Positions 19,648 through 21,837 of a stretch of 32,000 nucleotides of DNA are shown here, piece by piece. This stretch comes from Candidatus Helarchaeota ASGARD archaeon Hel_GB_B (lineage in GTDB: Archaea; Asgardarchaeota; Lokiarchaeia; Helarchaeales; HEL-GB-B): assembly GCA_005191425.1 (NCBI GenBank), contig SUPR01000017.1, positions 1 through 32,000 of the forward strand, in the 5' to 3' direction. The position numbers and the translations under genes are program-made. Under the pieces are notes generated by a model. The model did no database searches, was not told the origin of the DNA, and saw only the letters and a program-made list of their open reading frames with translations. Within the stretch, counting starts at the first letter, position 1; the number at the start of each line of letters is the position of its first letter.

Positions 19648-20625
19648 ATGACAAGAACTGATTTAAAGAAACCAACTCAGAAGAAAAGTAGAAATTACAA
19701 AGCAGGACTAGCACAATTAAATTTTAAAATCGAATTCGATTGGAGTCATGAAGAAGCAAGGAAATTATATGAAACATCTATTCATAAAATTGAAAAAAAT
19801 ACAATATTATATCAAGATTGCATATCGGGTATGAAAAATCTACCTGAAGAATCTGTCGATTTAATTATAGCAGATCCTCCTTTTGGAATAAACTTCTCAG
19901 GAAAAGGTAGTCAATATAATCGAAATTCAATTTTAGTAGAAGATGGTTATGTAGAAATAAAAGAAGACTATGATAAATTTACCGAAAAATGGATTCAATG
20001 CCTTCCAAGAATAATGAAAAAAACAGCTTCGGCATATATTTTTTCGGGCTGGACAAATTTAAATGATCTTTTAAACGCTATTAATAAAACAGATTTAAAA
20101 CTTGTTAATCATATTATCTGGAAATATCAATTTGGTGTGTTTACTAAAAGAAAATTTGTCTCTTCTCATTATCACATTTTATTTCTTGTAAAAAACGAAA
20201 AAAAATATTTTTTTAATAAATACGAATATTATCCAGAAGATGTATGGATTATTCCTAGGAGATACCTACCAGGTCAAAGAAAAAATGGTACAAAATTACC
20301 TGAAGATGTTGTTAATAAGTGTATCAATTTTTCTTCAAAACCAGGTGATTTGATATTTGATCCATTTATGGGAAATGCTACAACTGCAATTTGCGCAAAA
20401 GGATTATATAGACATTATTATGGATTTGAAATAAATCAAACAATGAAGGAAATTCACCAAAATTACATTAATAATATCAAAGTAGGACAGTTTTTTAGAC
20501 CACTCAAAGAATATTTACCATCTAAAGAAGAGTTATTAAAAAAATATCCTCATTTAAAGAAATATGTTAATGAGATAAAAAAATACTCTGGTAAAAAGAC
20601 AAGATTAGATCGTTATTTCGAATAA
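19648..20625 (+). CDS. Site-specific amino-DNA methyltransferase (N6-adenine or N4-cytosine), beta class
   Basis: YQDCISGMKNLPEESVDLIIADPPF (motif IV) precedes FDPFMGNAT (motif I) and YYGFEIN; IIWKY, EDVWII, KLPEDVV. Confidence 0.92.
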   Translation: MTRTDLKKPTQKKSRNYKAGLAQLNFKIEFDWSHEEARKLYETSIHKIEKNTILYQDCISGMKNLPEESVDLIIADPPFGINFSGKGSQYNRNSILVEDGYVEIKEDYDKFTEKWIQCLPRIMKKTASAYIFSGWTNLNDLLNAINKTDLKLVNHIIWKYQFGVFTKRKFVSSHYHILFLVKNEKKYFFNKYEYYPEDVWIIPRRYLPGQRKNGTKLPEDVVNKCINFSSKPGDLIFDPFMGNATTAICAKGLYRHYYGFEINQTMKEIHQNYINNIKVGQFFRPLKEYLPSKEELLKKYPHLKKYVNEIKKYSGKKTRLDRYFE

Positions 20626-20643
20626 TAAAAGAGTCTGATTATT

Positions 20644-21837
20644 ATGGATGATGTTAAACTTATTGAGGTTATTGCTGAAATTGGTTCAAAAAATAAGTCT
20701 GAACCCTATATTAAGGATGTTGAGATTTTTAGACATTTTTTTGACAAAGATTTTAATTTAATTACTAATGAATTAAACAGCCTAGATGGTAATTGTACAA
20801 GGAGGGAACTTATAACAAGATTTTTACTGTTAAACGCGGTGCTTGATCAAGGACCTGATACTGAAGGTGTTAGACAACTTCTTTGTGATACAATAAATTA
20901 TTTATATAGGCATGAAATTCGCATATTACATACACCATTAGATTTTTTTAAAGAACTTGGAATTATAATAACAGAAATCGATAATGTACACGACATCGTT
21001 AAAAAACTAAGAGCAAAAAAATGGGCTAGAAATAACAATAGTACGGCTTTAAAATATAATTTATTTATGGATAATACAACCCAAACATTGAATTATGCTG
21101 TATTTCGCTGGGGAGTTCCATTATCTGTTCCATTGATTTTAGAAAATGATTATAAAAGTAAGGATGATGATATAAATCCTGAACTTTTATTAGATTATTT
21201 AGAAGATGATAATGATGCCGAATGGCCCTCATCAGCAGAGATAATGTCAAAAAAAATCAAACAACACAAGCGTTATGGCTTAGGTAAGGCAATTGGGGAT
21301 AAAGCTGCCCATTTATTCGCAAAATGGATAGTACATACTTTTAATTTAACTCGTAAGAGAGATATAACTTGGGGAAAATATTCGTTTGAAGTTCCTTTCG
21401 ATAGCAATGCAGGAAGAGTTCTCTTTAGAACGGGATATTTACTTAATTGGGCTGATATTGATGATTATAAGAAATCTAATGTAATACAGCCAAACCAAGG
21501 AAAAGGAGGAACAGATTATATACGAGTAACTAATATCAGGGGGATGAAAGCAACTAAAAACATTTCGACCATTGATCCTAATATCTATCGAGATCTTTGT
21601 GTTAAATATCTTTTAACGCATAGAAGAGCCCCTAAAAAATACGAGATTCAAAAAATACCAATTGCACAATTATTAAAAGAGAAAAAATATGGACCTGGGG
21701 ATTTAGATGATGGATTAATGTATATTGGTACACATTTTTGTTTTAATATTGAAAATCCAAATTGTGATGATTGCCCAATTAATTCATATTGTAGTGGATT
21801 TAATGAAAATATATTAATTACTAAATATAGGACATGA
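20644..21837 (+). CDS. Divergent HhH-GPD / endonuclease III-like DNA glycosylase/AP-lyase with C-terminal [4Fe-4S] motif
   Basis: HhH-like GLGKAIGDKAAHLF (Lys at the EndoIII lyase position, ~21277-21318), PFDSNAGRVLFRTG (VDTH..RV..RLG equivalent, ~21394-21435), DLDDGLMYIGTHFC and C-x7-C-x2-C-x5-C (~21739-21792); 18 nt downstream of the MTase. Confidence 0.7.
   Translation: MDDVKLIEVIAEIGSKNKSEPYIKDVEIFRHFFDKDFNLITNELNSLDGNCTRRELITRFLLLNAVLDQGPDTEGVRQLLCDTINYLYRHEIRILHTPLDFFKELGIIITEIDNVHDIVKKLRAKKWARNNNSTALKYNLFMDNTTQTLNYAVFRWGVPLSVPLILENDYKSKDDDINPELLLDYLEDDNDAEWPSSAEIMSKKIKQHKRYGLGKAIGDKAAHLFAKWIVHTFNLTRKRDITWGKYSFEVPFDSNAGRVLFRTGYLLNWADIDDYKKSNVIQPNQGKGGTDYIRVTNIRGMKATKNISTIDPNIYRDLCVKYLLTHRRAPKKYEIQKIPIAQLLKEKKYGPGDLDDGLMYIGTHFCFNIENPNCDDCPINSYCSGFNENILITKYRT

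Follow-up and report, generated by a model that had tools for sequence, protein, structure and literature searches.

Why should a gene for a putative DNA glycosylase lie directly behind a gene for a DNA methyltransferase? The question is raised by a stretch of 32,000 nucleotides from the archaeon Candidatus Helarchaeota Hel_GB_B (GenBank assembly GCA_005191425.1, contig SUPR01000017.1, positions 1 to 32,000 of the forward strand), referred to below as the window. It encodes a beta-class amino-DNA methyltransferase (M) and, in the same direction, a 397-residue protein (the R candidate) that resembles the helix-hairpin-helix (HhH)-GPD DNA glycosylases. The original prediction, made from the sequence alone, offered three readings of this pair: a type II-like restriction-modification (R-M) system whose restriction enzyme excises a base, a methyl writer/eraser pair, or an antiviral glycosylase for modified bases. 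The first of these is favored by the fold and residues of the 397-residue protein, the linkage of its homologs to methylases, their replacement by a restriction endonuclease-like protein, and the avoidance of AGCT in other hosts. The pair probably represents a type II-like R-M system with an HhH-GPD base-excision/apurinic-apyrimidinic (AP)-lyase restriction enzyme.

The two predicted open reading frames (ORFs), 18 nt apart, are confirmed at the coordinates listed below, and no terminator is seen in the spacer between these same-strand genes.

19648-20625, plus strand: M gene, beta-class amino-DNA methyltransferase, 325 aa (PF01555, PADLOC MTase_II)
20626-20643, plus strand: spacer of 18 nt from the M stop codon to the R start codon (from the sequence)
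20644-21837, plus strand: R candidate, expanded HhH-GPD/[4Fe-4S] glycosylase-lyase-like protein, 397 aa (AlphaFold2 model, profile)
21277-21318, plus strand: HhH element GLGKAIGDKAAHLF, residues 212-225 (K220 codon, 21301-21303)
21394-21420, plus strand: PFDSNAGRV with the predicted catalytic Asp, D253 (codon 21400-21402)
21739-21792, plus strand: predicted iron-sulfur cluster loop, C366-x7-C374-x2-C377-x5-C383

Fold and predicted active site of the 397-residue protein

The 397-residue protein had been described as devoid of a recognizable PD-(D/E)xK, HNH, or GIY-YIG motif, and the nuclease models of Pfam, NCBIfam, and PADLOC all fail to match it. No curated family in these three collections matches it above the threshold: PF00730 gives no match, and the remaining hits are a sub-threshold one to EndIII_4Fe-2S and a weak one to MutY.

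The AlphaFold2 model of this protein, built from a 60-sequence alignment, is nearly all helical and has high scores (predicted local distance difference test [pLDDT], 96.4; predicted template modeling score, 0.94). It contains a two-domain helical fold that consists of a six-helix barrel and a cluster domain. A VIA-align structure search over 48,161 PDB representatives, which is independent of Foldseek, shows that the top 23 matches all belong to the HhH-GPD superfamily. They are led by DUF2419 (Z score, 13.6), EndoIII (12.3 to 13.2), MIG (12.3; PDB entry 1kea), NTHL1 (12.2), MutY (11.9), and ROS1 (11.7), with AGOG, OGG, MagIII, AlkA, and TAG ranked below ROS1; the Z scores of unrelated folds do not exceed 4.7. 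Foldseek matches in the PDB are weak (E values of 0.07 or worse), yet all of them are HhH-GPD proteins, and the Foldseek searches of PDB, AFDB, and Atlas are consistent with this fold. The predicted HhH-GPD fold is thus borne out by a confident model and by its structural matches.

The original prediction also included an N-terminal region of ~200 residues and insertions beyond the size of EndoIII. The HhH-GPD matches span model residues 1 to 397, with EndoIII alignments of 206 to 220 residues, and in one of these 206 of the 211 EndoIII residues align across model residues 1 to 394. The protein therefore represents a single enlarged HhH-GPD fold whose extra length comes from internal insertions; the insertions stand, whereas the separate N-terminal domain does not.

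The quoted motifs, GLGKAIGDKAAHLF, PFDSNAGRV, and C-x7-C-x2-C-x5-C, are present at the expected codons and are near-invariant in the 60-sequence alignment. K220 is conserved in 59 of the 60 sequences, D253 and P251 in all 60, and the four Cys residues in 60, 59, 60, and 60, respectively. Such near-invariance of K220, D253, and the cysteines shows that these motifs are not a matter of chance. The family profile matches Escherichia coli MutY with an E value of 3e-6, placing DSNAGRV on the catalytic D138 and the Cys loop on the iron-sulfur cluster loop of MutY.

In the model, K220 is found at the N terminus of the second HhH helix (helix 219-232, preceded by the hairpin). It occupies the register of EndoIII K120 (I-G-D-K-A-A vs. 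V-G-A-K-T-A of archaeal Nth), this being a register of motifs and not of superposed coordinates. In the local mode of hhalign, the D253 motif aligns with the PVDTH motif of EndoIII/Nth, an alignment that is weak on its own, and the cluster loop aligns with that of archaeal Nth with an E value of 6.6e-6, which points to a predicted [4Fe-4S] loop. These two segments, the Asp motif weakly, are all that the local mode aligned, whereas the global alignment with archaeal Nth is misregistered because of the insertions in the 397-residue protein.

A genome-wide scan with PF00730 finds one other gene, encoding a canonical HhH-GPD protein, on contig 103. The 397-residue protein is therefore an addition to the housekeeping set. 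Its family is a divergent branch of the HhH-GPD superfamily that has no curated model.

Linkage to amino-methyltransferases and mobility

Homologs of the 397-residue protein, referred to below as the glycosylase, number 670 among 5.8 billion proteins and fall into 115 representatives at 50% identity, all of them unannotated. Linkage was assessed with an iterated methylase profile in 79 loci: the window and 78 others, which come from species-representative genomes and span many phyla. The N6_N4 methylase gene is located directly upstream on the same strand in 68 of the 79 loci, downstream on the same strand in 4, in convergent orientation in 2, and one ORF away in 1; it is not found in the remaining 4. 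The expected linkage of homologs to a methylase thus holds at 75 of the 79 loci. As for the methylase-less four, L043 lies at a contig edge, L075 is on a short truncated contig, and L071 and L077 are fragments of one broken gene in one genome. An independent Pfam scan detects PF01555 in 60 of 76 upstream ORFs, and the remaining located partners also belong to PF01555; a C5-cytosine methylase partner is not seen among the family loci.

The linkage is retained both in glycosylases that are 30 to 31% identical and in the nearest ones, which are 70 to 71% identical, and in tandem, divergent, and convergent gene orders. The other neighbors belong to 81 unrelated Pfam families, so that the conserved unit comprises only two genes; no second nuclease is conserved beside the pair among the family loci.

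The cassette is not found in 40 relatives of the window genome, including one of the same genus. Two bacterial hosts were compared with their relatives, and the cassette is carried by 3 of 41 in one case and by 1 of 31 in the other. Anaerolinea thermophila, Thermanaerothrix daxensis, and Thioalkalivibrio sp. HK1 are among the carriers that have been cultured. The methylase and the glycosylase thus form a mobile two-gene cassette with a patchy distribution. An intact methylase accompanies a damaged glycosylase in L074 (internal deletion) and L078 (a 39-residue remnant), and no intact glycosylase without a methylase is found among the 66 assessable loci. This pattern of a kept M and a lost R is consistent with an R-M system but would also be expected for a methylation-dependent accessory gene.

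Mobility and patchiness would also fit an antiviral glycosylase that acts, like Brig, on modified or foreign bases, with a methylase that protects the host or serves another role, and to this extent that part of the original prediction stands. Defense glycosylases do exist, but they have other folds (Brig3 has the AAG fold) and work without methylases (PMC13160076). An enzyme of the Brig type needs no methylase, whereas here the linkage to a methylase is strict. This linkage, together with the exchange for a restriction endonuclease fold and the AGCT avoidance described below, neither of which is explained by the antiviral reading, points to discrimination of self from nonself by site methylation. 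Besides, no homolog of the glycosylase is found in the plasmid, phage, and IMG/VR collections. An antiviral enzyme of this kind is very improbable.

Partner methylases and their exchange

The predicted beta-class methyltransferase is confirmed by a match to PF01555 (N6_N4_Mtase) with an E value of 1.4e-33. The window methylase also matches PADLOC MTase_II (E = 8.6e-60), and its closest solved relative is CcrM, an N6-methyladenine (m6A) enzyme (E = 1e-26). Its motif IV, IIADPPFGI, is found at 19864-19890, with DPPF at 19873-19884; judging by this motif, the enzyme is predicted to methylate N6 of adenine.

Among the partner methylases, SPPY is found at 46 loci, DPPF at 23, and DPPY at 5. SPPY is an N4-methylcytosine (m4C)-type signature, the closest solved relatives being TTHA0409, N4-cytosine methylases, and PvuII, whereas DPPF and DPPY are m6A-type signatures. 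At least 5 to 7 changes of methylase type are needed on the glycosylase tree. The glycosylases of L011 and L018 are 83% identical, whereas their methylases are only 24% identical and differ in predicted chemistry. Such tolerance of both kinds of partner is in keeping with an enzyme that any methylation of its site would block; it is far less compatible with an eraser or with a repair enzyme dedicated to one particular methyl-base product.

Under the writer/eraser reading, methylation would be dynamic: m6A or m4C would be removed by the glycosylase in the way that DEMETER (DME) and ROS1 remove 5-methylcytosine (5mC). The presence of ROS1 among the structural matches (Z score, 11.7) and of a lyase Lys, as in DME/ROS1, speaks for it. 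This part of the original prediction nevertheless fits poorly, as near-identical glycosylases are accompanied by methylases of different chemistries and their hosts lose AGCT. One glycosylase lineage occurs beside SPPY as well as DPPF methylases, so that its pocket is unlikely to be specific for a single methyl base. If a writer and an eraser were expressed constitutively from one operon, each site in the host DNA would be nicked. The writer/eraser reading would also leave both AGCT avoidance and replacement by a restriction endonuclease fold unexplained. A writer/eraser pair is hardly credible.

The partner methylases differ in architecture: one form is 641 aa long, another has an N-terminal extension of 200 aa, and in others the motif order is permuted (X-I before IV). 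Architecture-variant partner methylases are encoded at the following positions.

L036, 6046-7968
L017, 6652-7989
L076, 6460-7869
L080, 2497-3948

A PD-(D/E)xK protein in the same slot

In ~12 glycosylase loci, including L002 and L159, the nearest relatives of the window, the pair is adjoined by a gene for an unannotated protein of ~215 aa, here termed X. It has no Pfam match, 754 homologs, and a conserved E...D...D-x-K arrangement. Its model (pLDDT, 92.6) matches type II restriction endonucleases, namely, SfiI (Z score, 9.1) and SwaI, BglI, BcnI, NaeI, and EcoRV (7.3 to 8.1), making the X family a candidate new AGCT restriction endonuclease. X genes are located as follows.

L002, 1648-2298
L159, 1684-2412
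L081, 3857-4480
L060, 9227-9841

Among 80 metagenomic X loci, 62 contain X and a methylase without the glycosylase and 5 contain all three genes. The median best identity between the X-linked and the glycosylase-linked methylases is 69%, reaching 80 to 88%. Since orthologous methylases pair with either X or the glycosylase, the latter occupies the R slot, and beside such methylases the two are mostly mutually exclusive. In the nearest relatives, X follows the glycosylase; it is absent from the window and its genome. No third gene is conserved at the glycosylase loci, X being confined to the ~12 mentioned above.

Avoidance of AGCT

AGCT is the most depleted 4-bp palindrome across 61 carrier loci. 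The observed/expected (O/E) ratios of AGCT are as follows.

61 carrier loci, pooled (903 kb): 0.316 (641 observed, 2030 expected)
Carriers by partner: SPPY, 0.30; DPPF/Y, 0.36
Per-locus medians: carriers (n = 69), 0.28, vs. non-carrier relatives (n = 34), 0.84 (Mann-Whitney, 2e-11, kinship uncorrected)
Three Anaerolineae carriers, DNA distant from the cassette: 0.04, 0.04, and 0.09
17 non-carrier relatives of the Anaerolineae carriers, pooled: 0.77
Loci with X and a methylase but without the glycosylase: 0.43, the lowest palindrome there
Window genome: 1.013 (8488 sites)

Five strongly depleted carrier genomes lack X, according to a search with a positive control, and in carrier genomes with the methylase and the glycosylase but without X the O/E ratios are 0.04 to 0.15. 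Decay of C to T was considered as a cause of the AGCT loss and is rejected because AGTT and AACT show no enrichment. Because an A and a C both occur in AGCT, a methylase of either the m6A or the m4C type could protect it.

The X loci and the AGCT loss both bear on the main rival explanation, a methylation-linked repair glycosylase similar to Vsr or Mig.MthI that would fix a lesion or mismatch at the methylated site, or off-target alkylation. Such an enzyme would accompany the methylase both in the presence and in the absence of a true restriction endonuclease (X); the fold is that of repair enzymes, and the ~12 loci with both the glycosylase and X resemble complete R-M systems that contain Vsr. 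Dcm and Vsr further illustrate that a methylase and a repair enzyme can form a pair without a restriction endonuclease. However, all the partners are PF01555 amino-methyltransferases, for which no methylation-specific mismatch is known to us; m4C and m6A deaminate to uracil and hypoxanthine, both of which are handled by general enzymes. The partner chemistry switches between near-identical glycosylases, and the glycosylase and X mostly exclude each other beside orthologous methylases. Finally, the extreme loss of AGCT in genomes without X is the kind of loss that an orphan methylase with a repair enzyme should prevent, and the excess of AGTT and AACT is lacking. A repair function is, therefore, rather unlikely.

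Other palindromes are nearly lost in some of the carriers: TCGA in L001, L067, and L063 (O/E, 0.0 to 0.02) and GATC in L008, L010, L004, and L037 (0.0 to 0.06). Additional R-M systems are presumably present in these hosts and may raise the overall avoidance of palindromes among the carriers.

Proposed mechanism of base-excision restriction

In the R-M system proposed here, the methyltransferase would mark a short palindrome in the host DNA, which in the relatives is most likely AGCT; the mark predicted from the DPPF motif of the window enzyme is m6A. The 397-residue protein would read the sequence and, at unmethylated sites, flip out and excise a base. Lys220, together with Asp253, would then form a Schiff base and cut the strand by beta-elimination. 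Cuts on both strands of the palindrome would produce a double-strand break with unligatable ends. The inferred properties thus include the glycosylase and lyase activities, the excised base, and the blocking by methylation, as well as the AGCT specificity of the window copy and its activity in the Hel_GB_B archaeon.

For the family as a whole, it appears reasonably likely that the HhH-GPD/[4Fe-4S] enzyme is the R component of widespread bacterial and archaeal AGCT cassettes, interchangeable with a PD-(D/E)xK protein beside orthologous methylases. It would then constitute a second class of restriction glycosylases, of independent origin, and the first Fe-S cluster-dependent restriction enzyme.

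Several observations weigh against base-excision restriction. To our knowledge, HhH-GPD enzymes otherwise act on lesions, mismatches, or 5mC, and none acts on normal bases in a sequence context. The equivalence of K220 to EndoIII K120 is suggested by the motif register and the helix boundaries in the model. The joint presence of the glycosylase and X in ~12 loci would also be expected of a Vsr-like accessory repair enzyme. The comparison of AGCT in carriers and non-carriers is phylogenetically uncontrolled; one carrier stretch, G042, has an AGCT O/E ratio of 0.95 and so shows no avoidance, and some non-carriers, L130 (G058), L143 (G094), and L153 (G110), are AGCT-depleted, with ratios of 0.19 to 0.35. 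Another AGCT system, for instance X, may be present in these AGCT-poor non-carriers, or the cassette may have been lost from them. The window genome itself avoids neither AGCT nor any hexamer containing it, so the specificity of the window copy cannot be read from its host; that copy may be a recent acquisition, may be inactive, or may have another specificity.

The absence of AGCT avoidance, combined with the finding that the 40 relatives lack the cassette, suggests a recent arrival of the window copy. The same lack of site avoidance, along with the location of the cassette in a 7.6-kb gene-poor island beside insertion sequence (IS) IS110 remnants, would also suit an inactive relic. Alternatively, the 397-residue protein might have a non-glycosylase role, either as a sequence-specific DNA binder or as an AP-lyase-only partner that needs another nuclease. 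Both ORFs are intact, with all conserved catalytic and cluster residues kept, and the family loci hold no conserved second nuclease beside the pair; a relic or a non-glycosylase function is improbable.

The lowest palindromes in the window genome are GGGCCC (O/E, 0.48), GGATCC (0.58), CTAG (0.75), and GATC (0.76), none of them related to the cassette. The cassette itself contains 2 AGCT sites (20025 and 21303), compared to 4.2 expected, one of which overlaps the K220 codon region.

Comparison with known systems

The HALFPIPE enzymes R.PabI, R.HpyAXII, and R.CcoLI excise an unmethylated base in a 4-bp palindrome, which is followed by AP-lyase cleavage (PMC10273834, PMC5388411, PMC4357717). Like the PabI family with its m6A methylases, the cassette described here would represent a two-gene mobile R-M unit, identified by co-mobility with the methylase, and the proposed logic is the same. 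The similarity is functional only: in place of the curved beta-sheet of HALFPIPE, the glycosylase has the all-helical HhH-GPD fold and a predicted [4Fe-4S] loop. Further, the PabI site is GTAC, whereas the glycosylase would recognize AGCT and employ a predicted Lys Schiff base and an Asp, and it has partners of two chemistries. The activity of PabI has been demonstrated, whereas the glycosylase family is known from sequences and a model.

The glycosylase shares with EndoIII (Nth) and NTHL1 the two-domain fold, the HhH element with a Lys, the Asp, and the four-Cys cluster loop. It differs from EndoIII in being ~190 residues longer, owing to the insertions, in the spacing after the first Cys (x7 rather than x6), and in its ties to a methylase, its patchy distribution, and its escape from detection by PF00730. 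MutY/MUTYH, with a fold Z score of 11.9, is the best sequence-profile match and has a similar Asp motif and Fe-S loop. However, the alignment position that corresponds to the MutY general acid varies among the glycosylases, and MutY has an additional C-terminal NUDIX-like domain. The HhH position that holds the Lys is occupied in MutY by Ser.

Mig.MthI is likewise an HhH-GPD/Fe-S enzyme encoded next to a DNA methylase, M.MthTI. Mig and Vsr are partners of 5mC methylases and act in T:G repair, whereas here the methylases are amino-methylases, the lyase Lys is present, and the hosts avoid the site. DEMETER and ROS1 are similar in being bifunctional HhH-GPD/Fe-S enzymes, in their large insertions, and in having as their target a base that is undamaged and defined epigenetically; they are, however, eukaryotic and excise the methylated base, whereas here methylation would be protective. 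The putative target is shared with the AluI-type AGCT systems and with X, whose methylases are orthologous N6/N4 enzymes; M.AluI is a 5mC enzyme. X would hydrolyze a phosphodiester bond, unlike the proposed glycosylase.

PabI/HALFPIPE is the only family of restriction glycosylases cited in reviews from 2023 and 2025 (PMC10273834, PMC12707154). No description of an HhH-GPD restriction enzyme was found in the open literature, with subscription journals and REBASE being outside this search. If the proposed function is correct, base-excision restriction evolved more than once, and evolution can turn a repair glycosylase into a sequence-specific weapon aimed at normal bases. Many "orphan" methylases might then have an unrecognized partner, an example being the persistent archaeal AGCT m4C type II methylase groups HG11, HG16, and HG19 found in Nitrososphaerota and Methanomicrobiales (PMC10609329). 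A sequence-specific enzyme that makes AP sites or nicks could also find use as a tool.

Surroundings of the cassette

The cassette is flanked by ~3.8 kb of AT-rich DNA. The gene-poor stretch that contains it is bounded by the pgk gene and the IS110 remnants, which are followed by an aconitase gene.

16351-17565: pgk
17566-19647: upstream flank, AT-rich, with short ORFs only and no recognizable gene remnants
21838-23527: downstream flank, without an intact gene
24003-24950: IS110 remnants

Pfam matches none of the short flanking ORFs, and a search of both flanks for remnants of X, of a methylase, and of another glycosylase found none. Farther upstream, the minus strand encodes a 799-aa glycyl radical enzyme with PFL-like and Gly_radical domains (11172-13571); no activase is seen among the annotated neighbors. 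The degraded IS adjoining the cassette retains the IS110 transposase as two ORFs on the minus strand, DEDD_Tnp_IS110 (24393-24950) and Transposase_20 (24003-24266).

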